NCBI GenBank assembly: GCA_045659785.1
Contig: JAZRCM010000011.1
Location: forward strand, 4,902-68,901
From: Alphaproteobacteria bacterium
GTDB lineage: Bacteria; Pseudomonadota; Alphaproteobacteria; RF32; CAG-239
Direction: 5' to 3'
DNA: 64,000 nt
Both the position numbers and the translations under genes were made by a program. This document shows positions 8,626 through 64,000 of this stretch, piece by piece (the stretch's first letter is position 1; the number at the start of each line of letters is the position of its first letter). The notes under the pieces are model-generated. The model was given only the letters and a program-made list of their open reading frames with translations, did not search any database and was not told the origin of the DNA.

Positions 8626-9230
8626 ATTCCGATTTTTTGTAAAAAGTCAAATAGTTCGTCGGCTATAATTTCATGTCCTTCTGCGTTGGGATGTGTGGCA
8701 TCTTTATATAAATTTTCTAAATTTCGGTTTTTCCATTTATTATAACGAGCGAAAAAAGTAATATTACGTTTTAGGCAAATGTTTTCGATAATTTGGTTAT
8801 ATTTTTCAACATCTTCATTGCGACGAATTAAAGTTGCCTGTTCTGTATAACGATTTTCAACTACCGGAATTAAGTCGGTAACAATAATTTGGGCATTGGT
8901 TTTATTTAAGGTATCAAGTAGTCGATTCCAATAAACGACTCGAGCTCCTTCTGATATATCGGTTTCTAAATTACTGTCTTTACGACGTCGTAAATCATTA
9001 ATTCCGATATTAACGATAATAACGTCAAAACTACGGGTTAGAGCTTCAGTAATTGCTCTAAACGAAGCGTCTGCGATATTGTCTCCGGCTTGTGACATAT
9101 TGTTGAATACATATTCTCCGGCTTTTTCTTGCAACATTTTTTGTGCTAAACGGGAAACCCAGCCAAGATTGTTTTCATCATAAAATCCGTGCGCTATACT
9201 GTCGCCGATAATGCCGATTTTTTTCATCAC
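8622..9230 (-). CDS. SGNH/GDSL-family hydrolase
   Basis: IGDSIAHGF (GDS block with catalytic Ser), later DATHPNAEGH (DxxH block). No signal peptide. Confidence 0.7.
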   Translation of the reverse strand: MMKKIGIIGDSIAHGFYDENNLGWVSRLAQKMLQEKAGEYVFNNMSQAGDNIADASFRAITEALTRSFDVIIVNIGINDLRRRKDSNLETDISEGARVVYWNRLLDTLNKTNAQIIVTDLIPVVENRYTEQATLIRRNEDVEKYNQIIENICLKRNITFFARYNKWKNRNLENLYKDATHPNAEGHEIIADELFDFLQKIGI

Positions 9231-55885: not shown

Positions 55886-56617
55886 ATGGCAGAAATAAGA
55901 AAAATTTTGCTTAAGAGATTGTTTGTAAACAGTACAAAATATTGTATCAGAAAATGGCATGAAATGGCGTTATTTTCGATTGTAAATGCTATTTTTATGA
56001 TTGTCGGTTTTAAGTTTATTAACGGATGGCAAGATAAACTTTTTTTATTGTGGCTAATCCCTTACTATATGTTTTGGTATTCGTTTTTCCGTTTTTATTT
56101 TGAACGAAAACCATATATGATAACATCAAAGATTTTTGAAACATTGATGCCGTCTTCGCGTATTTTCGGTTTGATGTTGTTTTTTACAACTCTGCTTATC
56201 GCTATTCCGTTGGTAATTCCGTTTATTAGTGATAACCACTCTTGGGTGGATAGATACATATTCTATCTGCAAAAACATATGGAAGATCCGTTGATTTTGA
56301 ATACGATAACCATGGTTATATTCAGTATTGCTTCGCCGTTTATTTTTTATCGCCCGATGATGGGGTGGATTGGTTCGGTTATCGGTCGTAGCGGCTTACT
56401 TTCTAGCGCATACGCACGCACAAAAGGAAACTATTGGGAATTTTTATTAATCACCATCGTTTTTAATTTGGTGTATTCAATAATGCAATTTTGTGACAAT
56501 CATTTGGGAACAGCAGGATGGTTAACAATTTTGTTAGGTTCTCCCGTGGTCGTGTTTATGAACGTGATTTTAGCAAAAACATACGAATATTTCTTTTTGG
56601 AAATAGACAACGGTTAA
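55886..56617 (+). CDS. Polytopic membrane protein, hypothetical
   Basis: 243 aa, about 6 TM helices, no family recognised. Occupies the position where tolB would be expected. Confidence 0.45.
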   Translation: MAEIRKILLKRLFVNSTKYCIRKWHEMALFSIVNAIFMIVGFKFINGWQDKLFLLWLIPYYMFWYSFFRFYFERKPYMITSKIFETLMPSSRIFGLMLFFTTLLIAIPLVIPFISDNHSWVDRYIFYLQKHMEDPLILNTITMVIFSIASPFIFYRPMMGWIGSVIGRSGLLSSAYARTKGNYWEFLLITIVFNLVYSIMQFCDNHLGTAGWLTILLGSPVVVFMNVILAKTYEYFFLEIDNG

Positions 56618-56642
56618 AAGATTTTTCTTAATTTTGCTACGT

Positions 56643-57302
56643 TTATTTTAATATTTTCAAAATAGCGACAACTTTCGCCAAGCAAGACAATTTATTTAAA
56701 TTACTGATTGTTATTGGCGGATATAAAGGGTTGTCGGATATTATTTGTGCATTGTGCTCAAATTCGTTAAAACAAAGGCGTTTTATAAATAATTCTCCTT
56801 GTAATTCGAACAAATAAATACCGTCATATTCAGGTTTTGTAATTGATGTGTCAACAATGGCTATATCTTTGTCGCATACTGTGGGCAACATGGTGTCTCC
56901 GCGCACAATAATTGCTTTCAGTGAATGTATGGAAGCGGAGCCAAGATTGTTGAAAAAGTTTTTGCTGATAGGATATTGTCCGACAACCGGAGCGGATAAT
57001 CCTTTTCCTTCCGTTGTGGCGCAGTCAATAATATCTGCAAAAAATATTTGCTCATCGGTTGTTGATGATTTTTGTGTCGGTTGAGGAATTTCGTTTGAAA
57101 AACCGGAATTGAATTTGGTTAGAGCTTCCAAATCGAGATTGAAAAATTGTGCGGCAGGTAAAACTTTATCAACCGGTAAATCTCTTTTTCCACATAAAAG
57201 TTCTGATATTCGAGGCTTTTTCCAATTCAATGCTTCAGCGGCATCTTGTTGGCTGATTTTGTTTTGACGCATATAATCTCTTAACCATTTCCATTTTGAC
57301 AT
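56643..57302 (-). CDS. Phage CI/LexA-like repressor (XRE HTH + S24 peptidase domain)
   Basis: N-terminal HTH (NKISQQDAAEALNWKKPRISEL). C-terminal S24 fold (IVRGDTMLPT; FIKRL with catalytic Ser/Lys spacing). Confidence 0.75.
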   Translation of the reverse strand: MSKWKWLRDYMRQNKISQQDAAEALNWKKPRISELLCGKRDLPVDKVLPAAQFFNLDLEALTKFNSGFSNEIPQPTQKSSTTDEQIFFADIIDCATTEGKGLSAPVVGQYPISKNFFNNLGSASIHSLKAIIVRGDTMLPTVCDKDIAIVDTSITKPEYDGIYLFELQGELFIKRLCFNEFEHNAQIISDNPLYPPITISNLNKLSCLAKVVAILKILK

Positions 57303-57398
57303 ATTTTCTTCCTTTTACCAAATATGTATTTTTTATATTACGATAATTCATTTAAATCAAGTAATAGTTGCGTATCAGAATAAAAATATCAACATATT

Positions 57399-57435
57399 TA
57401 CATAAAATGTATTGACAACAATTACATAAAATGTA
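57399..57435. promoter_or_regulatory. Two copies of the palindrome tacataaaatgta (57399-57411 and 57423-57435) flanking a ttgaca -35 hexamer, candidate repressor operators
   Basis: Read directly. Located in the divergent region between the repressor gene and the rightward gene. Confidence 0.45.
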
Positions 57436-57457
57436 TTTTATTTTTGCGGAGGTCAAT

Positions 57458-57955
57458 ATGAAAAAATATGATGAAACATACATTGATAAAGCTAAATGTA
57501 TAAAAGATGGTTTTATTCGCACTAAAAAAGGCGTTTGTAAAATGACGGTTTTGGAAAGGTTATATCATAAAGGAAAACTTGATTTCGGTTCATCAGGAGC
57601 AGGAGCTGTTGACCGCCTAAAAGCCGGAGAATATTTGGCATCAGATTATGAAAAAGGGCATTTTAACGTAATCGGTTCCGCTTGGGGCGGCGAGAAGGTA
57701 GATTGCGGAAATTCCAATGTTTCAAACGGTGTTTTAACCGAAATGAGAAGTCGCTATTTTATGGCGGCAAAATCCGTTCCGTCAGAATTTTGGCCCATTG
57801 TCAGAGCTGTTTGTATTGAAAATAAATTACCGGAAATTGACAATTCTTATTCTGAAAGGAAAAGAGGAGAAATTGCGTATTTGCAATATTGTGACCTGTG
57901 TCGTGGTTTGGACAGATTAATAGAATTTTATCATAAGACAAAAATACAACTATAA
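57458..57955 (+). CDS. Hypothetical protein (prophage early region)
   Basis: Start at the ATG after a gcggaggt RBS. Cys-containing. No family recognised. Confidence 0.4.
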   Translation: MKKYDETYIDKAKCIKDGFIRTKKGVCKMTVLERLYHKGKLDFGSSGAGAVDRLKAGEYLASDYEKGHFNVIGSAWGGEKVDCGNSNVSNGVLTEMRSRYFMAAKSVPSEFWPIVRAVCIENKLPEIDNSYSERKRGEIAYLQYCDLCRGLDRLIEFYHKTKIQL

Positions 57956-58058
57956 GTATATATTAAATTATGTTTTGCAAATTTCTGTTATTAATTGTAA
58001 AAAATGATTTTTAATAATTTTAGGTTGTGTTATAGGTTGTTTATAAATGGAGGTTTTT

Positions 58059-58373
58059 ATGAAAATGGAACTAATTACTGCAAAGAAAACAAAGGTATCT
58101 CCGCAAAATATTACGGATGGGATATATGGTTTGATTAATTTACTTTCAAATACAGACTTAAATAATAAGCAATCTATATTGATATATAACATATTATACG
58201 GAGCTTATGCCTTATTGAAAAGATATGAAACAGCAAGCAGGGAATCTTTACTTATCGCATCGGTTGAGGAGGATAATGATAATATGCGTAAATATATCGA
58301 AACTTTACATAAAAATGCTCTTCATGATGAGGTTATAATTCCTATGATAGTGGCGGAAAATATAGATATTTGA
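58059..58373 (+). CDS. Hypothetical protein
   Basis: ATG 5 nt after a ggagg RBS. About 104 aa. Confidence 0.35.
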   Translation: MKMELITAKKTKVSPQNITDGIYGLINLLSNTDLNNKQSILIYNILYGAYALLKRYETASRESLLIASVEEDNDNMRKYIETLHKNALHDEVIIPMIVAENIDI

Positions 58374-58551
58374 AAAGTTATCCACAACCTTAATTAGATA
58401 ATATTGACTTTTTCGACGGTTTGTGGTATGTATTTTTTCTAGAATGGAACAGGTGGCTTCAGAGATAAGCTGCCTGTTTTTTTGTGTGAAATTTGACCGA
58501 AGAGAGTATGTTATTTTCTTCGGTTTTTTTATTTTTAGGAGAGAATAAAAA

Positions 58552-59274
58552 ATGGCAAACGAAACTTATAACATTTTACAAGGCATATTTAACGGACAAA
58601 CACCGATACAACGCAGTAATCCGGTGAGCGGAGAAAGCAATTATTATTATATGAAACCTAATCAAAATTCTTATACTCCGTTGTCACAAATGCAAACCGT
58701 TGATGTGCCGTCGGCAACAACTCCAAATCCGTATTTGAGGGAGGGATATGGTAATTCGTATTCTAAAAACTCTTTTGGAGATTATTTTGCAGAAAATATT
58801 ACGGATAAGACTATGACTGATAATAAAGAAAAATTTGATATAAACAGATTTATGAAAATATATGCAGAGAATTTAAATAATTTAAATCCTGGATATAGAA
58901 TTGGCGAGACAGCGAATAATCTTTATGAAGGGAAAAGTTTTTTGAGAAACGCCAAAGTTCACGGATTAGATAATTATGTTCATCGTTTAGCGATGTGTCA
59001 AAACGCACAAGACGGAATAGACAAGTACTTATATACACAAGGGATGGGATTATTAAACGAAGCAAAGGATTTAATTGAAAAAACGGAGTTTTCTAGACTT
59101 AATGAAAAAGAGGTGAGAGAAAAATTTGTTAATGACCTTATAGACTCTGGAAAGGATATAAAAAATAACTTTGAAGGAGCAAATTGGGGCTTGCTTAATC
59201 CAAATAAATCTTGTATAATGTGGCTTAAAGATTTAGATTATAAAAACAATGTTTGGAAGAATAAAAATGATTAA
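58552..59274 (+). CDS. Polymorphic-toxin-like protein 1: conserved 60-aa N-terminus + unique C-terminal domain
   Basis: The first ~60 residues (MANETYNILQGIFNGQTPIQR.NP.SG.SNYYYMKPNQNSYTPLSQMQTVDVPSATTPN) are nearly identical to 59430-59921. The C-terminal 180 aa are unrelated to it. Preceded by two terminator hairpins. Confidence 0.5.
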   Translation: MANETYNILQGIFNGQTPIQRSNPVSGESNYYYMKPNQNSYTPLSQMQTVDVPSATTPNPYLREGYGNSYSKNSFGDYFAENITDKTMTDNKEKFDINRFMKIYAENLNNLNPGYRIGETANNLYEGKSFLRNAKVHGLDNYVHRLAMCQNAQDGIDKYLYTQGMGLLNEAKDLIEKTEFSRLNEKEVREKFVNDLIDSGKDIKNNFEGANWGLLNPNKSCIMWLKDLDYKNNVWKNKND

Positions 59275-59362
59275 AGAATTTAAGTTAATATGCAAGACCA
59301 CGTTAATTTGCATGGGTGTAACTTTTTTTGTTATTGCTCCCATTGTGGGATTATTTTTATAA
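59267..59362 (+). CDS. Tiny single-TM protein (31 aa, MIKEFKLICKTTLICMGVTFFVIAPIVGLFL) overlapping the toxin-1 stop, immunity-like
   Basis: ATG embedded in the aatgattaa stop context. Related to the 45-aa protein at 60190-60327. Confidence 0.3.
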   Translation: MIKEFKLICKTTLICMGVTFFVIAPIVGLFL

Positions 59363-59429
59363 CAGAAAGTAATTTTTTTACAAGCCGCTCTTTAATTAGG
59401 GCGGTTTTTGTTTTTGGTAGAATATAAAA

Positions 59430-59921
59430 ATGGCAAATGAAACTTATAATATTTTACAAGGCATATTTAACGGGCAAACTCCGATACAACGCACTAACCC
59501 GATGAGCGGACAAAGCAATTATTATTATATGAAACCTAATCAAAATTCTTATACTCCATTGTCACAAATGCAAACCGTTGATGTGCCGTCAGCAACAACT
59601 CCAAACCTGTATTTGACGGAAGAGGAACCTAATTTTATAGAAAAAGGTATTTCTTTAATTCAAGACGGAGTAACGGCTTTCAAATATTATAAGGAAATGG
59701 ATGAAACAAATAAAAAGCTTATAAATATGTATGGAAAAGGGGCTTTTGATTTTGTTAGAAAAAATAATAGGCCTTGGACAGAAGTATCTGCAGATGCGAT
59801 AAAGGACTTGACGAACAATCGCTATGGTTCTAAAGTCGGTTATAGTAATAGAGAGGCAAATTGCAGAGATTTGTTGGGACATTTAAGGACAGGAAATATG
59901 ATAAATGCAGGTATTAAATAA
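59430..59921 (+). CDS. Polymorphic-toxin-like protein 2: same N-terminus, different C-terminal domain
   Basis: 163 aa. N-terminal 60 aa match protein 1. The C-terminus (..GSKVGYSNREANCRDLLGHLRTGN..) is unrelated to it. Confidence 0.5.
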   Translation: MANETYNILQGIFNGQTPIQRTNPMSGQSNYYYMKPNQNSYTPLSQMQTVDVPSATTPNLYLTEEEPNFIEKGISLIQDGVTAFKYYKEMDETNKKLINMYGKGAFDFVRKNNRPWTEVSADAIKDLTNNRYGSKVGYSNREANCRDLLGHLRTGNMINAGIK

Positions 59922-60102
59922 AATACTGGATGTGTTATTAAAGATAACTATATTTCCTTACATTATCGTTCTGTTATTGTTTATCGGATATAAAATTTAT
60001 GAACATAATGTAAAAAAGGAATATATTGAAGCTTGTTTAAAACATGAGAAGAATGTAGAGGTCTGTTCTCAAGAAGCAAATAAAGTTTTTGATGAAATGT
60101 GA
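59905..60102 (+). CDS. Small TM protein with CX8C (65 aa), immunity-like partner of toxin-like protein 2
   Basis: Overlaps the 3' end of 59430-59921. Single TM helix then ...EACLKHEKNVEVCSQ. Paralog at 60525-60692. Confidence 0.4.
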   Translation: MQVLNKILDVLLKITIFPYIIVLLLFIGYKIYEHNVKKEYIEACLKHEKNVEVCSQEANKVFDEM

Positions 60103-60107
60103 AAAAT

Positions 60108-60200
60108 TGATATGGCTTGCAAAACCCGAATAAATCTTGTATAATGTGGCTTAAAGATTTAGACTACAAAAATAATGTTTGGAGAAAAAATGATACGAGA
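60108..60200 (+). pseudogene. Orphan 3' fragment of a toxin-1-type C-terminal domain (..NPNKSCIMWLKDLDYKNNVWRKND)
   Basis: About 80 nt nearly identical to 59197-59274. No start codon or N-terminal region. Confidence 0.45.
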
Positions 60201-60327
60201 TAAAATTACTTTTATTTCTAAGGATGGAATAAAAACCGACTGTAAAAATATCGTCAATGGTGTTATGAAGATTTGTTTATATGTGTGGGCAATTTTAATT
60301 TTGGCAACACCATTTTTTGTTCCATAG
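60190..60327 (+). CDS. Small TM protein (45 aa, MIRDKITFISKDGIKTDCKNIVNGVMKICLYVWAILILATPFFVP), full-length version of the 59267 gene
   Basis: ggag RBS. ATG overlaps the end of the orphan fragment exactly as 59267 overlaps toxin 1. Confidence 0.4.
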   Translation: MIRDKITFISKDGIKTDCKNIVNGVMKICLYVWAILILATPFFVP

Positions 60328-60337
60328 TGTTGATTTA

Positions 60338-60372
60338 TGTTTTTTATAAACCGCTCTTTTTAGAGCGGTTTT
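60338..60372 (+). terminator. Rho-independent terminator (aaaccgctctttttagagcggtttttt)
   Basis: Perfect 9 bp stem. A degenerate copy of the same element follows the 59267 gene at about 59376-59400. Confidence 0.5.
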
Positions 60373-60395
60373 TTGTTTTTATGGGAGAATAAAAA

Positions 60396-60524
60396 ATGAA
60401 ACTTATAATAAGAATTTTAAGGACTTGACGAATAATCGCTATGGTTTTAAAGTTGGCTATAGTGATAAAACGGCAAATTGCAGAGATTTGTTGGGGCATT
60501 TAAGAACAGGAAAGATAAAAAAAT
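60396..60524 (+). pseudogene. Internally deleted remnant of a toxin-2-type gene (start codon + 12 nt joined to the last ~110 nt of the C-terminal domain)
   Basis: The upstream context ggagaataaaaaatg and the segment ggacttgacgaataatcgctatgg...gcagagatttgttggggcatttaagaacagga match 59430-59921. Stop codon after 10 codons. Confidence 0.45.
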
Positions 60525-60692
60525 ATGAATTTTTATAAAAGACTTGCGTATTATTCAGTGGTTTTCATACTGTTTTTTGCGATATTGATTTATATGCTTA
60601 TCGTAGATTATGAAAAATCCGGCGATAAGTTTATATTAGAATGTATGCAAGCCGGTAAAAGTTATGAATTTTGTAAAAACCAGTGGTATTAA
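60525..60692 (+). CDS. Small TM protein with CX9C (55 aa), paralog of 59905-60102
   Basis: MNFYKRLAYYSVVFILFFAILIYMLIV TM helix then ILECMQAGKSYEFCKNQWY. Followed by a gccccaattatttggggc terminator at about 60694-60720. Confidence 0.4.
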   Translation: MNFYKRLAYYSVVFILFFAILIYMLIVDYEKSGDKFILECMQAGKSYEFCKNQWY

Positions 60693-60898
60693 GAAAAAAA
60701 GCCCCAATTATTTGGGGCTTGTTCCAATCCTTTACCTGGGCTAGCAACTCAAGTAAAGATACTAAATGAGCGATTTCGATTTCTATCTCACTAGTGGATA
60801 GTGACAATATATCATATATAAAGGTGAAAATCAATAAAAAGATAAAGATACTTCGTAAAATATAGAGATGTTTCTTATTGATTTTGTGATAAAAAACA

Positions 60899-60955
60899 AA
60901 AAATGTTCTATTTTTGTTCAAAAAATATTTGACAATGTTCTATTTTTGTTCTATT
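60899..60955 (+). promoter_or_regulatory. Promoter with a direct repeat: aaaatgttctatttttgttc appears twice, with ttgaca between the copies and a tattgt -10
   Basis: The ~19-nt unit is repeated about 33 nt apart, the second copy forming the spacer of a ttgaca-17-tattgt promoter upstream of the 60988 gene. Confidence 0.35.
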
Positions 60956-60987
60956 GTTTTTTTATAATCAAAATTGGGGGAATAAAA

Positions 60988-61203
60988 ATGAATAAGACAA
61001 TAAGTTTTGAAGATGTATTGATATTTTTTACAGCAATAGCAGCTGTTTTAAGTTTGTTTATGATGATAGTGGTTATTTGCTTGAGCGGAACAAAATATTT
61101 GGCATTTATATTTTTTAATATTATGTTGGTTGTAGGAGCTTGGATTTTAGATTATAAAGGCATAAATCCAAAGAGTATGTTAAAAATTTGTTTGCGCAGG
61201 TAA
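60988..61203 (+). CDS. Small membrane protein (2 TM, 71 aa)
   Basis: ATG after a ttggggga RBS. Hydrophobic. Confidence 0.4.
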   Translation: MNKTISFEDVLIFFTAIAAVLSLFMMIVVICLSGTKYLAFIFFNIMLVVGAWILDYKGINPKSMLKICLRR

Positions 61204-61204
61204 T

Positions 61205-61648
61205 ATGAAAAAAGCAAAAAGAATATTGGGCTTAGCAATAAAATTTACAATAATATTTATTGTTTTGTCGGTAGTTTTTGATTTTGTTGCTGAAATTAAT
61301 ACTATAGCTGCATATATGCCAAAAGATAGATATGTTTTAATTTTGAGTGAAATTTTGGCGATATTGGGAATATGGAAAATTACGAAAACAAAATGGAAAT
61401 GGTGGGTTAAGCTTTTTGCTGTTCTTTTTACGGTAGTTTTTTTGAGCAAAATATTGACCATATTTCCGGAGTATCGTTTTTATAAAGCGGAAGAGATGTG
61501 TCATGAAGGAAAAATTTGCCGACAAGGTATTGTGTTAGAGGATGAATATGGCAAAAAATATTCAGTAGATGAAAAAATATGTAAGGAATATAACGGAAGG
61601 TGGATGACAGAATATCAGGCTTGTGATTTTAATCCGCCTCAACCTTAA
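61205..61648 (+). CDS. Membrane protein with a Cys-rich C-terminal domain
   Basis: 147 aa. 3 TM helices then CHEGKICRQG...CKEYNGRWMTEYQACDF. A terminator hairpin (aaatcgctcttatgagcgattt + T9) follows at about 61663-61690. Confidence 0.4.
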   Translation: MKKAKRILGLAIKFTIIFIVLSVVFDFVAEINTIAAYMPKDRYVLILSEILAILGIWKITKTKWKWWVKLFAVLFTVVFLSKILTIFPEYRFYKAEEMCHEGKICRQGIVLEDEYGKKYSVDEKICKEYNGRWMTEYQACDFNPPQP

Positions 61649-61716
61649 AACAGGTACATTAAATCGCTCTTATGAGCGATTTTTTTTTGTGAAATATTTT
61701 AAAAAAGGAAATTAAA

Positions 61717-63075
61717 ATGAATTTTAGAAATGTGTGGGAAGATACATTAGATGTTGGAAAATCCGTAGGCAAAGGTTTATTATCCGGAACGGAAAGTGCA
61801 TTAAACGGAGCAACTTTAGGCGGTTATCGTTGGTTGGGAGATAAGGTTGGTTTGGGAGTTTCGCAAAGAGCGAGAGAATTGCAACAACAGGCAGATGCAG
61901 CCGGAGTAGGCGGCTTAAATCAAGTCGGTAATTTTTTTGCAGAAATGGGAGGTTCTTTGCGAGGATTAAGCAATTTAGGGTATAATGCCATCAGAAAAGG
62001 AATTAGTATTTTAGCACCGCAAATGTCAAAATCAGTTGTTGCACCGAGCATATTATCCGGCACGGCAGAATCAGCAATAAACAGCACATTTGAAAATGAT
62101 TTTTTAAATTGGCAAGAGGTTGGAAAAGATACAGTTCAAGGATTGGGAATATCAACCCTTTTGAGCAGATTTGGAACATTGGCAAATAAAGGATTGCGTA
62201 GTTTACGAGATTATATGACCTTACCTTATAAAAATATAGAAACAATGAACTTTGCCCCTACAAGAGAACAACTATTAAAATATCCTGCAGAAAGCAGGTT
62301 TAACTTACCCGAAAAAACTTTGACTACTTCCGAGGCTGAAAATGTTTTGCGTAATAGAGCCCAGAATAGTGGTGTTGAGATTGGAGGAAATATTGACCAT
62401 TATTTAAATAAAAGGGGGAGACAACAATATGTAAGAACATTATCAAATACTCTTGAAAATCCTGATATTACTTATTCTTTAGGTAATAAAAATTATTTTG
62501 TAAAAAAATATAATGGGGTTCAAGGAAAAGAAGTGAAACTGTTTAATGATTTCATTGTTAAAAAGGATGGTAAATTATATACTAAGTTTGTTCCTGATGA
62601 TTTGGATTACGTAAGTAATCAGCTAATAAAAAACAACCCGCAAGACCTGTCCTTACGGGGAGTTACCAACAGTACGGAGCCGACAGGTGGTAAAGTTGGA
62701 ACCTCTTTTTACAAAAAAAATATACCATATTATGATATTGTTGTCAATTCCAAACTGCCTCACGTTAGCTCGTTATCCGAGGGGTTAAATGGTGTTCAAA
62801 AACAACAATTCGGTGATAGTTTTCGAGATGTAATGAGAAATAATTCTCAAAAATTGGGGACATTAGGTAGTATGTATCAATTACGGGATAATATTGAAAA
62901 TAAACCGTACTTGAGTTCGGTTACCGACAAGTTAAGCGAGGCAATTTTGACAGCAGAGCAGAATGCCAATATGCCAAGATGGACAAGATTGTTACAATCA
63001 ATGCCAAATAAATTTAATAGTAAATATCCTTATTTTGCCAATACATTAAGTTGGATGGGAAGCAGAGAATATTAA
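61717..63075 (+). CDS. Hypothetical protein (452 aa), Gly-rich N-terminal region
   Basis: No signal peptide. GxxxG-rich N-terminus. A terminator (aaaccgctcataaaagcggttt + T8) follows at about 63064-63095. Confidence 0.4.
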   Translation: MNFRNVWEDTLDVGKSVGKGLLSGTESALNGATLGGYRWLGDKVGLGVSQRARELQQQADAAGVGGLNQVGNFFAEMGGSLRGLSNLGYNAIRKGISILAPQMSKSVVAPSILSGTAESAINSTFENDFLNWQEVGKDTVQGLGISTLLSRFGTLANKGLRSLRDYMTLPYKNIETMNFAPTREQLLKYPAESRFNLPEKTLTTSEAENVLRNRAQNSGVEIGGNIDHYLNKRGRQQYVRTLSNTLENPDITYSLGNKNYFVKKYNGVQGKEVKLFNDFIVKKDGKLYTKFVPDDLDYVSNQLIKNNPQDLSLRGVTNSTEPTGGKVGTSFYKKNIPYYDIVVNSKLPHVSSLSEGLNGVQKQQFGDSFRDVMRNNSQKLGTLGSMYQLRDNIENKPYLSSVTDKLSEAILTAEQNANMPRWTRLLQSMPNKFNSKYPYFANTLSWMGSREY

Positions 63076-63108
63076 ACCGCTCATAAAAGCGGTTTTTTTT
63101 ATGGAGAT

Positions 63109-63612
63109 ATGATGAAAAAAACAAAAGATTATAAAAGTGAATATGCTCAAAAACTTGTAGCGTGGTTTCGTGATGCTCCGTTGTTTGTTGAAGAAACAAA
63201 AGAAGTTTTCAGCAAAAAGTCGGATAAAATAGAAACAATTATCGAAAAACAACCCGCTCCTTGCCCGAGTGTAGTTCGTTTTGCCGATAATCTGAAAATA
63301 AATGTTGAGGATATTTTGCGTTGGCGAGAAAAAAATTCCGAATTTAAATCCGCTTATGAGCAAGCAATGTATTTTCGGGAAGAATGGTTGATGAATGCAG
63401 CCGGATTGGGTTTTTATAATTCATCAATGTCAATTATGGCATTGAAGGCAAATCACGGTTGGTCGGAGAAAAGCGAAAAACAGTTGATTGATGACGGGAT
63501 CAAACAAGTTTTAGTTCAATTTGTAAAAGATAAAGGAGAAAATTATGAAAAAAATAACGGCGAAAATTCCGCAAATATTTGCTCCGCTAATGACGAAAAA
63601 ATATCGGATTAA
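63109..63612 (+). CDS. Phage terminase small subunit
   Basis: 167 aa. Conserved helix-rich region VVRFADNLKINVEDILRWREKNSEFKSAYEQAMYFREEWLMNAAGLG typical of TerS. Overlaps the start of the next gene. Confidence 0.55.
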   Translation: MMKKTKDYKSEYAQKLVAWFRDAPLFVEETKEVFSKKSDKIETIIEKQPAPCPSVVRFADNLKINVEDILRWREKNSEFKSAYEQAMYFREEWLMNAAGLGFYNSSMSIMALKANHGWSEKSEKQLIDDGIKQVLVQFVKDKGENYEKNNGENSANICSANDEKISD

Positions 63613-64000
63613 ATTTTATTATGGAGGGAGAGCCGGCGGAAAAAGTTATGCTTTTGCTGACAGTTTGTTGTTGTTGGGCAGAAAGAAAAAATTGTTCATA
63701 GCTTGTTTGCGCGAAATTCAGGATAGCATAAAAGATTCCGTTTATAAGTTGTTGTGTGACAGAATATCTTTTTACGGTTTGAACGACTACAAGATTTTTG
63801 AGGATAAAATAGAAAACAAAATTACCGGAACACGTTTTATTTTTAAGGGGTTGCGAGAGCAAGATGCACAAAAAATAAAATCGTTGGAAGGTGTTGATAT
63901 AGCTTGGATTGAAGAGGCTCAAACCATATCGGCAACTTCGTGGGAAGTACTAGAGCCGACTATCAGAAAAGACGGTTCAGAAATTTGGATTTCGATGAAT
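63545..64000 (+). CDS. Phage terminase large subunit (partial, runs off the window end)
   Basis: Translates to MKKITAKIPQIFAPLMTKKYRIKFYYGGRAGGKSYAFADSLLLLGRKKKLFIACLREIQDSI... Contains a Walker A GGRAGGKS and a PBSX/XtmB-type TerL N-terminus. Not in the ORF track because no stop codon occurs before the end of the window. Confidence 0.75.
   Translation, partial: MKKITAKIPQIFAPLMTKKYRIKFYYGGRAGGKSYAFADSLLLLGRKKKLFIACLREIQDSIKDSVYKLLCDRISFYGLNDYKIFEDKIENKITGTRFIFKGLREQDAQKIKSLEGVDIAWIEEAQTISATSWEVLEPTIRKDGSEIWISMN

Follow-up and report, generated by a model that had tools for sequence, protein, structure and literature searches.

A prophage locus of a gut alphaproteobacterium with a new N-terminal leader, interpreted as a polymorphic toxin–immunity array

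Prophages are already known to carry polymorphic toxins, including the MuF toxins of temperate phages (Jamet et al., 2017; PMC5576092), such as Bxa and Apk2 (PMC11699363); Bxa has immunity and possible poly-immunity genes (PMC11699363). The prokaryotic serum amyloid A (prok-SAA) domain has also been reported as a polymorphic-toxin tip, with immunity proteins that are all transmembrane (TM) proteins or lipoproteins (PMC12419801). The locus described here is of this known kind. It begins at position 58552 of a stretch of 64,000 nucleotides (nt), hereafter the window, from an uncultured Alphaproteobacteria bacterium (assembly GCA_045659785.1, contig JAZRCM010000011.1, positions 4,902 to 68,901). 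We consider it likely to be a prophage-borne polymorphic toxin–immunity array, which in the window holds one intact toxin (T1), one predicted dead toxin (T2Δ36, below T2) and two orphan modules of candidate immunity genes. Homology, architecture, pairing and asymmetric decay were computed; we infer toxicity, neutralisation, target, expression timing and delivery. The polymorphic-toxin architecture proposed in an earlier note on this DNA is supported by a leader with polymorphic C-termini, a domain of a toxin family and constant, type-specific partners. In the sense of Zhang et al. (2012; PMC3482391), the conserved N-terminus with many C-termini, the type-specific downstream immunity gene (at the genomic level only) and the orphan cassettes were all found.

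Like MuF toxins, the proteins of this locus are prophage-encoded in or beside the packaging module, combine a conserved N-terminus with swappable toxin C-termini and are accompanied by small downstream immunity open reading frames (ORFs) and orphan immunity genes; the delivery route of MuF toxins is also unresolved. However, Phage_Mu_F (PF04233) was found neither in T1 and T2 nor in any other toxin of this prophage lineage; it stands directly behind the leader in 3 of 51 leader-bearing relatives. Lacking the defining domain, the locus is not a MuF toxin, but it probably works like one. The leader here, unlike the N-terminus of MuF toxins, is only ~62 amino acids (aa) long and predicted to be disordered, and the genes form tandem arrays. 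The toxins here would mostly act in the periplasm or on the envelope, unlike cytoplasmic enzymes such as ADP-ribosyltransferases or (p)ppApp synthetases, and the host is an alphaproteobacterium rather than a member of the Firmicutes or Bacteroidales.

SAA has been placed in the Lipocone superfamily, for which an ancestral pocket of His (helix H2), Glu (H3) and Asp (H4) was inferred; the SAA-Wnt clade carries an sNxxG(R) motif, and cleavage or transfer of lipid head groups is only a prediction for prok-SAA (PMC12419801). The toxins of our locus share with prok-SAA the domain family, the His/Glu/Asp pocket, the sNxxG-type H4 motif and a fifth helix, and their candidate immunity proteins are likewise membrane or periplasmic. 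The main text of that paper covers the routes of the type IV, VI, VII and IX secretion systems (T4SS, T6SS, T7SS and T9SS) and of MuF, as well as Cystatin-like and TPM packaging domains, but not the present leader; beyond listing MuF it does not mention phage-borne prok-SAA, and single-TM partners of the Y-E...C...C type are not among its immunity folds (PMC12419801). BteO, from the effector–immunity pair BteO–BtiO of the Bacteroides fragilis T6SS (PDB 9UU0), is a helical antibacterial effector that works in the periplasm; it makes cells elongate, bleb and lyse, and a His, a Glu and two Asp are among its essential residues (PMC12541434). It differs from our toxins in being delivered by T6SS, is described as non-enzymatic and binds OmpA-C-like domains (PMC12541434); no sequence similarity between BteO and the T1-containing profile was detected at E≤10. 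TelC of Streptococcus intermedius, a T7SS lipid II phosphatase, is a Lipocone toxin that works only beyond the cytoplasm; the immunity protein TipC is anchored in the membrane and acts at its outer face (PMC12419801). TelC belongs to a different Lipocone clade, with LXG/T7SS delivery and a Gram-positive host; activity on lipid II is a property of TelC, and any such activity of prok-SAA would be by analogy. In contact-dependent inhibition (CDI; CdiA-CT/CdiI) and Rhs loci, tandem 5'-truncated toxin ends with intact immunity genes are formed by recombination at conserved sequence that precedes the variable C-terminus. Our locus has the same orphan trail of truncated toxin ends and intact immunity genes, but CDI and Rhs toxins are huge and secreted, with delivery domains of the type V or type VI secretion systems, whereas the effectors here have 160-300 aa and lie in a prophage. 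A CDI/Rhs-like orphan trail inside the prophage of a gut alphaproteobacterium is new.

Both toxin genes of the earlier note were recovered as ORFs, and the near-identity of their first ~60 residues was borne out: a block of 216 nt covering the ribosome-binding site (RBS) and the first 62 codons is common to T1 and T2 at 89% identity. In T1 the leader (residues 1-62, positions 58552-58737) is followed by a disordered linker up to residue ~95 and by the prok-SAA/Lipocone domain (residues ~96-240). The C-terminal domains of T1 and T2 had been described as unrelated; this did not hold, as by profile comparison they are divergent copies of one toxin fold, prok-SAA/Lipocone. With the leader removed, the T1 family matched the full-length T2 family with 96.8% probability (E 2e-10) and a Pfam-positive SAA family with 92.5% probability (E 5e-7) in profile-profile alignments by hhalign. 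Database relatives of T1 (P0004 and P0010) carry Pfam SAA (PF00277), the curated cut-off of which was passed by P0010 and by a stand-alone 121-aa copy encoded after TerL. A profile including T1 recovered 126 proteins, nearly all of them PF00277, and matched solved SAA structures in the Protein Data Bank (PDB) with E-values of 2e-12 to 7e-11.

In the domain alignment of 14 divergent copies, residues D140, H144, E170, D173, D202 and N206 (T1 numbering) were invariant. The predicted pocket of T1, composed of H144, E170, D173, D202 and N206-x2-G209, matches the Lipocone His of H2, Glu of H3, Asp/Glu at the end of H3 and Asp...Asn (sNxxG) of H4. An AlphaFold2 (AF2) model of T1 residues 96-240, built from 58 sequences, has six helices (mean predicted local distance difference test score, pLDDT, 71.7; predicted template-modelling score, pTM, 0.63); an earlier run on full-length T1 with a 10-sequence alignment gave a pLDDT of 50.7, too poor for a structure search. 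The top three PDB matches of the model in Foldseek were to mouse SAA3 (probability 0.97-0.99), every other match being at ≤0.2; the model also resembles the T6SS effector BteO, and against viral structures (BFVD) it gave only noise. T1 is predicted to be soluble, and its model has the four-helix cone and short fifth helix of the Lipocone family. Comparison with toxin families, which the earlier note had proposed, thus led to a known polymorphic-toxin tip.

Alignment with P0009, P0007 and P0005 identified T2 of the window as a derivative of the P0009/P0007 type with a 36-aa in-frame deletion. The missing residues, AANGTDNYYHALLQCDLAQKGDLHLQNGLALGYGKE, include the DNYYH..C..AQ.G core; helix H2 with the predicted catalytic His and most of H3 are gone, which leaves T2 without the full Lipocone pocket. 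The same deletion class is present in the homologous locus L005. Its junction reads ...YGKGAFDF in the window (59733-59756) and ...YGKEAFDF in L005 (9082-9435), and the deletion is flanked by short direct repeats (YGKG/YGKE); it may have more than one origin, or one later substitution may separate the window and L005.

Two further observations concern the SAA family. A second, leaderless SAA module lies between TerL and the GroES-like and portal genes of homologous loci (L001:12864-13369, L005:15093-15902, and also L034 and L038-L041). Its SAA protein has 121-138 aa, the 138-aa form being strikingly similar to animal SAA (GNDDYFHCKGNFEATQRG), and its gene is followed by those for an 84-aa TM protein with four Cys, which may be the '4-Cys helix + 4 strands' immunity type of PMC12419801, and by a 43-aa TM ORF. 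In addition, many other SAA proteins of gut Alphaproteobacteria share a different N-terminal leader, 'YPKY.SP.GYQ.G..GID.YGV.HS.F..RDE..YQ.AR ... NYPQY.TNFWG', carriers of which include P0083, P0087, P0091, P0092, P0099, P0107, P0109, P0116, P0117, P0119, P0137, P0143, P0165 and P0168. This suggests a second, unrelated trafficking module for this toxin family.

The leader of T1 and T2 has the consensus G-x2-P-[IVL]-x-R-x-N-P-x2-G-[EQ]-S-x-[YW]-Y-Y ... [IV]-D-V-P-x3-[ST]-P-N-P. A profile of its first 65 residues retrieved 75 proteins at E<1e-3 from 1.84 billion representatives, each standing for a cluster at 50% identity; carriers have 53-532 aa, and the match is always at their own N-terminus (residues ~1-65). 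A Pfam scan of 51 carriers found SAA in 7, Glyco_hydro_108 in 4, Tlde1 in 4, Phage_Mu_F in 3, Phage_lysozyme in 3, T6SS_VgrG3-like_C in 2, and Pesticin and YkuD in 1 each, PG_binding_3 also being present; others end in an RNase-like (PBECR-type) domain or in a Gly-rich domain without assigned function. The leader is thus joined to at least 7 Pfam domain types in addition to RNase-like and unassigned domains, with at least 6 C-terminal types behind it in this prophage lineage alone, and most of its partners are envelope-targeting effectors known from T6SS or colicin-type antagonism. Homologs of the N-terminus with other C-termini, anticipated in the earlier note, therefore exist (SAA, Tlde1, GH108, lysozyme/Pesticin, VgrG3-like_C and MuF among the 75 clusters). 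The leader had no match in Pfam, PHROGs, NCBIfam or PDB sequences. As it occurs in front of several different folds, it is not a structural phage protein of known type whose single tail has evolved rapidly. Neither T1 nor T2 contains a hydrophobic 19-mer (Kyte-Doolittle maximum 0.3) or TM segment, and therefore neither has a signal peptide; as the leader matches no family, no recognisable export or delivery module is present in them, in agreement with what had been noted before. A double-glycine leader of the bacteriocin type was considered and rejected, since the leader reads "FNG-Q" and a GG/GA cleavage motif is absent. The leader family is new, as is its set of envelope-targeting effectors.

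Genes with this leader were also found in other phages. IMG/VR contig L010 carries, directly after TerL and ahead of the major capsid protein, a gene in which the leader is joined to MuF and a lysozyme-like domain. In L009 a leader-Tlde1 gene stands among tail and virion genes and is followed by three tandem paralogs with three TM segments each. L030-L032 have an intact leader gene after the tail protein phrog_6013 and phrog_5107, and a frameshifted leader-lysozyme remnant after the portal gene, followed by three tandem genes for 154-aa paralogs with signal peptides. The 154-aa proteins are homologous to a 158-aa secreted protein beside the L010 effector (E 6e-9); in two phages, lysozyme-type relatives are thus accompanied by homologous periplasmic proteins of 154-158 aa. 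Neighbourhoods of leader genes also include the virion protein phrog_6121, and phages of the L009, L010 and L030 types have portal, capsid and TerL families in common with the prophage of the window. Other searches gave less. The leader of viral-scan candidate L029 was not confirmed by hidden Markov model, one viral scan with a leader alignment (A9) gave no match, the phage DNA collection contained nothing related to the array, and a scan of JGI metagenomes yielded one truncated locus. Leader genes P0055, P0012 and P0034 are on short contigs, P0026 is at a contig end beside chromosomal genes, and the contexts of the relatives show no conserved upstream synteny with the early genes of the window.

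Because relatives sit in packaging and tail modules and some are leader–MuF fusions, the leader probably directs the effectors into or onto the phage particle, release by lysis being the alternative. A stronger version is that the leader is a MuF-independent signal for virion incorporation or ejection, which loads periplasm-acting toxins into or onto temperate-phage particles, so that induced lysogens kill non-immune neighbours; we put this forward as a tentative idea, more doubtful than the array itself. The cargo would comprise Lipocone, Tlde1, lysozyme and VgrG3-C-like domains, kin would be protected by the small inner-membrane immunity peptides, and the particles, possibly those of a domesticated element at a fixed chromosomal site, would provide a route functionally parallel to T6SS.

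The same molecular pairs could instead serve a phage-versus-phage purpose, the effectors being virion-borne entry enzymes and the resident small proteins blocking incoming effectors in superinfection exclusion. A precedent is phage T4, where the tail lysozyme gp5, a virion-carried wall-degrading enzyme, is inhibited by Spackle, a small envelope protein of the resident phage; there is no homology to our locus, and in T4 a single enzyme faces a single inhibitor, without a cassette array or shared leader. The placement of leader genes in structural or packaging modules (phrog_6013, phrog_5107, phrog_6121 and the MuF fusion after TerL) fits such a purpose, as does the predominance of classic wall-degrading enzymes among the partner domains; an RNase-type member without an immunity gene is what would be expected of an injected anti-host effector, and orphan inhibitors would widen exclusion. 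Yet a phage would need only one entry enzyme, and up to three intact effectors occur per array. Dead toxins (Δ36, nonsense codons) persist, contrary to what an essential role in entry would lead one to expect, and from other systems the SAA, Tlde1, VgrG3-C and pesticin-type domains are known to be killing toxins, not entry enzymes (PMC12419801; PMC12541434). We regard entry and exclusion, the main rival explanation, as an unlikely purpose, although genomics alone cannot separate it from a toxin array.

Within the toxin–immunity interpretation, the small ORFs behind the toxins are the candidate immunity genes (i37, i65, i50 and i55, named after their lengths in aa). Of the single-TM ORFs reported earlier after T1 and T2, those of 37 aa (31 aa from the internal ATG) and 65 aa stand, while a 45-aa ORF at 59290-59427, which runs through the terminator, is probably not a gene. 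Each of the four has one hydrophobic 19-mer (Kyte-Doolittle 2.1-2.6). Direct scans of Pfam, PHROGs and NCBIfam returned nothing usable for them, and the family is restricted to this lineage, with 4 clusters among 5.8 billion proteins. The 65-, 66- and 70-aa partners are only 28-36% identical, yet a Tyr-Glu immediately behind the TM segment and two Cys are invariant among them; with positive N-flanks and acidic C-flanks, the Cys pair is periplasmic by the positive-inside rule. In the T1/P0002 subfamily the partners (37 and 50 aa) have no periplasmic domain and are tail-anchored TM peptides. Ratios of nonsynonymous to synonymous polymorphism (pN/pS; all from small counts) were 0.07-0.27 for the partner ORFs overall, being 0.17-0.23 for i65, 0.13 for i50 and 0-0.27 for i55. 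The i37 protein is 100% identical in L005, L034 and L037, also behind degraded T1 copies, which may partly be due to a conserved block of cassette-end DNA that includes the terminator. This miniature TM/Cys-pair immunity family is new.

Homologous loci from metagenomes and metagenome-assembled genomes (MAGs), namely L001-L008, L011 and L033-L041, two of them from MAGs of deer-gut Alphaproteobacteria, gave seven distinct array haplotypes: the window, the L007, L001 and L005 types, L004, L033 and L037. Their pairs are constant: T1 with the 37-aa partner, P0002 with 50 aa, T2/P0009 with 65 aa, P0005 with 66 aa and P0010 with 70 aa, the last sometimes with an extra 40-aa ORF. In these haplotypes the cognate small ORF lies directly downstream of all intact SAA-type toxins (11/11); i50, for example, is directly behind intact P0002 in L007 and L008, and i65 is always behind P9-type toxins. 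At least 7 toxin-inactivating events were counted, with the partner ORF intact each time, and the converse was never seen (0 cases). They comprise the 36-aa deletion, nonsense codons in both L005 leaders, 5' truncations of P0002-, P0005- and P0010-type toxins, the chimera of a T2 remnant and i70 (ΔP9), and an internal T1 deletion of ~90 aa in L037. Arrays hold 1-3 intact and 1-3 degraded enzymes. The resulting orphan cassettes are ΔP2+i50 and ΔP9+i55 in the window, and ΔP5+i66, ΔP10+i70 and internally deleted T1+i37 elsewhere. The asymmetry is expected if loss of immunity with the toxin kept is lethal and orphan immunity is useful, and the small TM ORFs are, as had been supposed, conserved partners that are kept when the toxin degrades. 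L005 has a further peculiarity, shared by L034 and L036: both leaders (L005:8064-8249 and 8944-9129) stop at codon Q38, with an in-frame Met at 47. The identical stops suggest gene conversion between the leader repeats, and the toxin domains are possibly translated without the leader.

The comparison also revised the identity of the two orphan modules. The 3' fragment and small ORF that had been assigned to type 1 are of the P0002 type, the fragment being 97% identical to the 3' end of P0002 and 86% identical to T1, and the 50-aa ORF is the partner of P0002. The type-2 remnant is present as described, but its partner with the Cys pair, i55, derives from the 70-aa partner of P0010-type toxins, of which it is the 5'-truncated core, with a new ATG and behind a T2-type 3' remnant. 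The chimera at 60396..60538 was found identical in L007 and L008. The array of the window looks like one of the L007 type ([leader-P0002+i50][ΔT2+i55]) into which T1 and T2 cassettes came in place of the 5' part of P0002.

The locus might be no more than decaying junk, the scarred remnant of duplicated moron genes with small ORFs arising by chance in AT-rich DNA. Damage affects three of the window's four units, a GC content as low as 0.31 favours spurious hydrophobic ORFs, and i37 lies within a conserved nucleotide block. Nevertheless, T1 is intact with all predicted catalytic residues, the small ORFs are intact in every haplotype with low pN/pS and keep the invariant Y-E...C...C at such low identity, and independent phages repeat the pattern of an effector with a membrane or periplasmic partner. 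Of all explanations considered, we find this one the least probable.

Features of the array and its surroundings are collected in Table 1. Repeat finding showed, besides the block shared by the two leaders, a 77-nt copy of a T1-type 3' end (60114-60190, 87% identity), a 126-nt copy of the T2 3' end (60419-60544, 82% identity) and a copy of the start region (60370-60410). Terminator-like hairpins are about six-fold enriched (8 observed vs 1.4±1.3 expected), and the tandem-hairpin region 58446..58525 is conserved in L001, L004, L005 and L007. The proposal that every unit ends in a related terminator proved partly right: the hairpins closing unit 1 and units 2 and 3 are related, but the hairpin scan found none after T2 and the 65-aa ORF, and the one at the right edge is unrelated, with its T-run on the minus strand. 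No known RNA was found by Rfam over 56500-64000.

Table 1. Features of the array and neighbouring genes in the window
Feature	Position	Strand	Basis or remark
CI-like helix-turn-helix and Peptidase_S24 repressor, left end of prophage-like region	56643..57302	-	phrog_4, E 7e-31
Two tandem terminator-like hairpins, directly upstream of T1 RBS	58446-58480, 58495-58525	+	14-pair stems, then T-runs
Toxin T1, 240 aa, apparently intact	58552..59274	+	ORF list, profiles, model
i37, 37 aa (31 aa from ATG at 59267), tail-anchored single TM, overlaps T1 stop; candidate T1 immunity	59249..59362	+	
Terminator-like hairpin closing unit 1	59382..59407	+	related to hairpin 60348-60371
Toxin T2, 163 aa, leader and SAA-like domain with 36-aa in-frame deletion; predicted inactive	59430..59921	+	
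i65, 65 aa, N-in/C-out single TM, periplasmic YE...C-x9-C tail; T2/P0009-type partner	59905..60102	+	
Orphan 3' fragment, last ~30 codons of P0002-type SAA toxin	60111..60203	+	repeat finding, paralog comparison
i50, 50 aa, tail-anchored TM, P0002-type partner, orphan here	60175..60327	+	
Terminator-like hairpin closing units 2 and 3, after 50-aa ORF	60348..60371	+	
T2/P0007-type toxin remnant, start codon region joined to last ~30 codons	60396..60538	+	
i55, 55 aa, TM, Cys pair; orphan immunity candidate	60525..60692	+	
GC-rich hairpin, T-run on minus strand, right array edge	60699..60720	-	sequence unrelated to other hairpins
71-aa two-TM protein and 147-aa membrane protein with 4-Cys C-terminal tail	60988..61648	+	no family match
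452-aa protein, weak PBECR2 (barnase/EndoU/RelE-like) match	61717..63075	+	E 0.011
Terminase small subunit, start of packaging module	63109..63612	+	phrog_3064, E 1e-21

The prophage-like nature of the region, assumed before, was confirmed. The S24 repressor, accompanied by two small early genes, lies upstream, and the terminase small subunit (TerS) lies downstream; in homologous loci TerL, a GroES-like gene, portal (phrog_12082) and major capsid protein (phrog_9953) genes follow, TerL, portal and major capsid protein coming after TerS in L001 and L005. Homologous loci occupy the same chromosomal slot, after ExbB/ExbD, and no tRNA was found at the prophage edge. In most relatives a 226-aa gene stands between a 243-aa membrane protein and the repressor (L001:3735-5139); it is absent from the window (55886-56617), and the left junction of the prophage-like region is thus itself polymorphic. 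Direct scans of Pfam, PHROGs and NCBIfam gave nothing usable for T1 and T2, for the early 174-aa and 108-aa proteins or for the 71-aa and 147-aa proteins. Nearly all haplotypes have the genes for the latter two between array and terminase, L007 having only a fragment of the 147-aa gene; they could encode holin-like lysis proteins or further immunity proteins. No relation was detectable between the 147-aa 4-Cys protein and the 84-aa 4-Cys partner of the stand-alone SAA. The 452-aa gene is present in the window, L004 and L005 and absent from L001, L007, L033 and L037; an N-terminal segment of its product resembles the middle region of P0008, an RNase-type effector (E 0.004), and the protein may belong to the same effector set as a relative that lacks the leader.

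Inter-unit terminators sit only ~20 nt before the next start codon. This spacing, together with the tandem terminators preceding the T1 RBS, suggests that toxin transcription after induction comes about through read-through or antitermination from the early operon. Promoter-like sequences occur at 60117-60145 (TTGCAA-17-TATAAT) and at 60425-60453 (TTGACG-17-TAAAGT, with a twin at 59808), and both orphan fragments start within a few bases of such hexamers in toxin 3' ends; our hypothesis is that the orphan immunity genes are driven by their own promoters. Upstream of the 71-aa gene, a tandem 32-nt direct repeat (60902-60965, AATGTTCTATTTTTGTTC...) overlaps a promoter-like TTGACA-17-TATTGT (60929-60957) and could be the operator or promoter of a separate unit running into the terminase genes.

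The position of the array directly upstream of TerS is the holin/endolysin place of lambdoid phages, which raises the question of a lysis cassette, with SAA-like, lysozyme and Tlde1 proteins as endolysin equivalents (e.g., blocking lipid II) and the small TM ORFs as holins or antiholins. The effectors have no signal peptide and their genes end within the start of the small TM ORFs, GH24 and GH108 domains typical of endolysins occur in relatives, and there is no canonical endolysin within the ~20 kb of prophage examined; a normal cassette may, however, lie beyond them. One intact enzyme and one holin per phage would be the holin–endolysin pattern, and it was not found: lysis needs one enzyme, whereas in the arrays paralogs stand in tandem, some TM genes are orphans and some enzymes are dead although their partners are conserved. 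Partner specificity tracks enzyme subtype, which is needless for holins, the same leader is fused to RNase-like and MuF head-protein domains, and the genes of L009, L010 and L030 are inside head and tail modules rather than lysis modules. A lysis cassette is therefore, in our view, very unlikely.

Taken as a toxin–immunity array, the locus would work as follows. Each full cassette would encode an effector made of the leader, a low-complexity linker and a soluble helical prok-SAA/Lipocone domain. By analogy with TelC and BteO, the toxin domain probably damages the envelope from the periplasmic side, either by cleaving lipid-linked head groups through the His/Glu/Asp/Asp-x3-Asn pocket kept in T1 or by binding an envelope protein. 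The overlapping downstream ORF would encode a toxin-type-specific inner-membrane immunity protein that neutralises the toxin. One form of it is N-in/C-out and ends in a periplasmic Cys-pair tail, the other is a tail-anchored TM peptide. Cassettes would be swapped by recombination at the shared leader and the conserved 3' ends, leaving truncated toxins and intact immunity genes. The array stands behind tandem terminators, between the repressor-side early genes and the terminase, and the toxins are probably made on induction.

Several points weigh against this interpretation. First, T1 alone has no Pfam match, its link to SAA comes from profiles, and the Foldseek E-values of its model are modest (0.4-0.9). 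Second, the leader is predicted to be disordered from a shallow alignment, and all 13 ordinary IMG/VR MuF loci are without it; the leader is thus not simply part of MuF, and its link to packaging is circumstantial. Third, i37 is the weakest coding case of the set, codon-position counts having failed to settle its frame, and no small partner ever follows the RNase-like member (P0008 type). Fourth, promoter-like sites are at chance level for AT-rich DNA (29 vs 26.7 expected), and with terminators between the units this makes expression of immunity in the lysogen hypothetical. Fifth, the haplotypes are few (seven) and come from closely related MAGs and metagenomes, some of the events being common by descent. 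Finally, that the toxins kill and the partners neutralise them is deduced from genomic patterns.

Polymorphic toxins are classed by their N-terminal routing module, and the leader described here defines a new one, present on at least 75 protein clusters. It ties phage particles or induction to envelope-targeting effectors otherwise known from T6SS and colicin-type warfare. For prok-SAA toxins, whose animal descendants are the serum amyloid A proteins, the locus offers a compact pair of a ~145-aa domain and a 37-70-aa membrane partner. Such a pair would allow two published views of the fold, a lipid-head-group enzyme and a non-enzymatic binder of OmpA-C-like domains, to be compared. If the leader is indeed a virion-loading signal, it would be usable for loading cargo into phage particles and would explain how prophages of gut bacteria arm their hosts.

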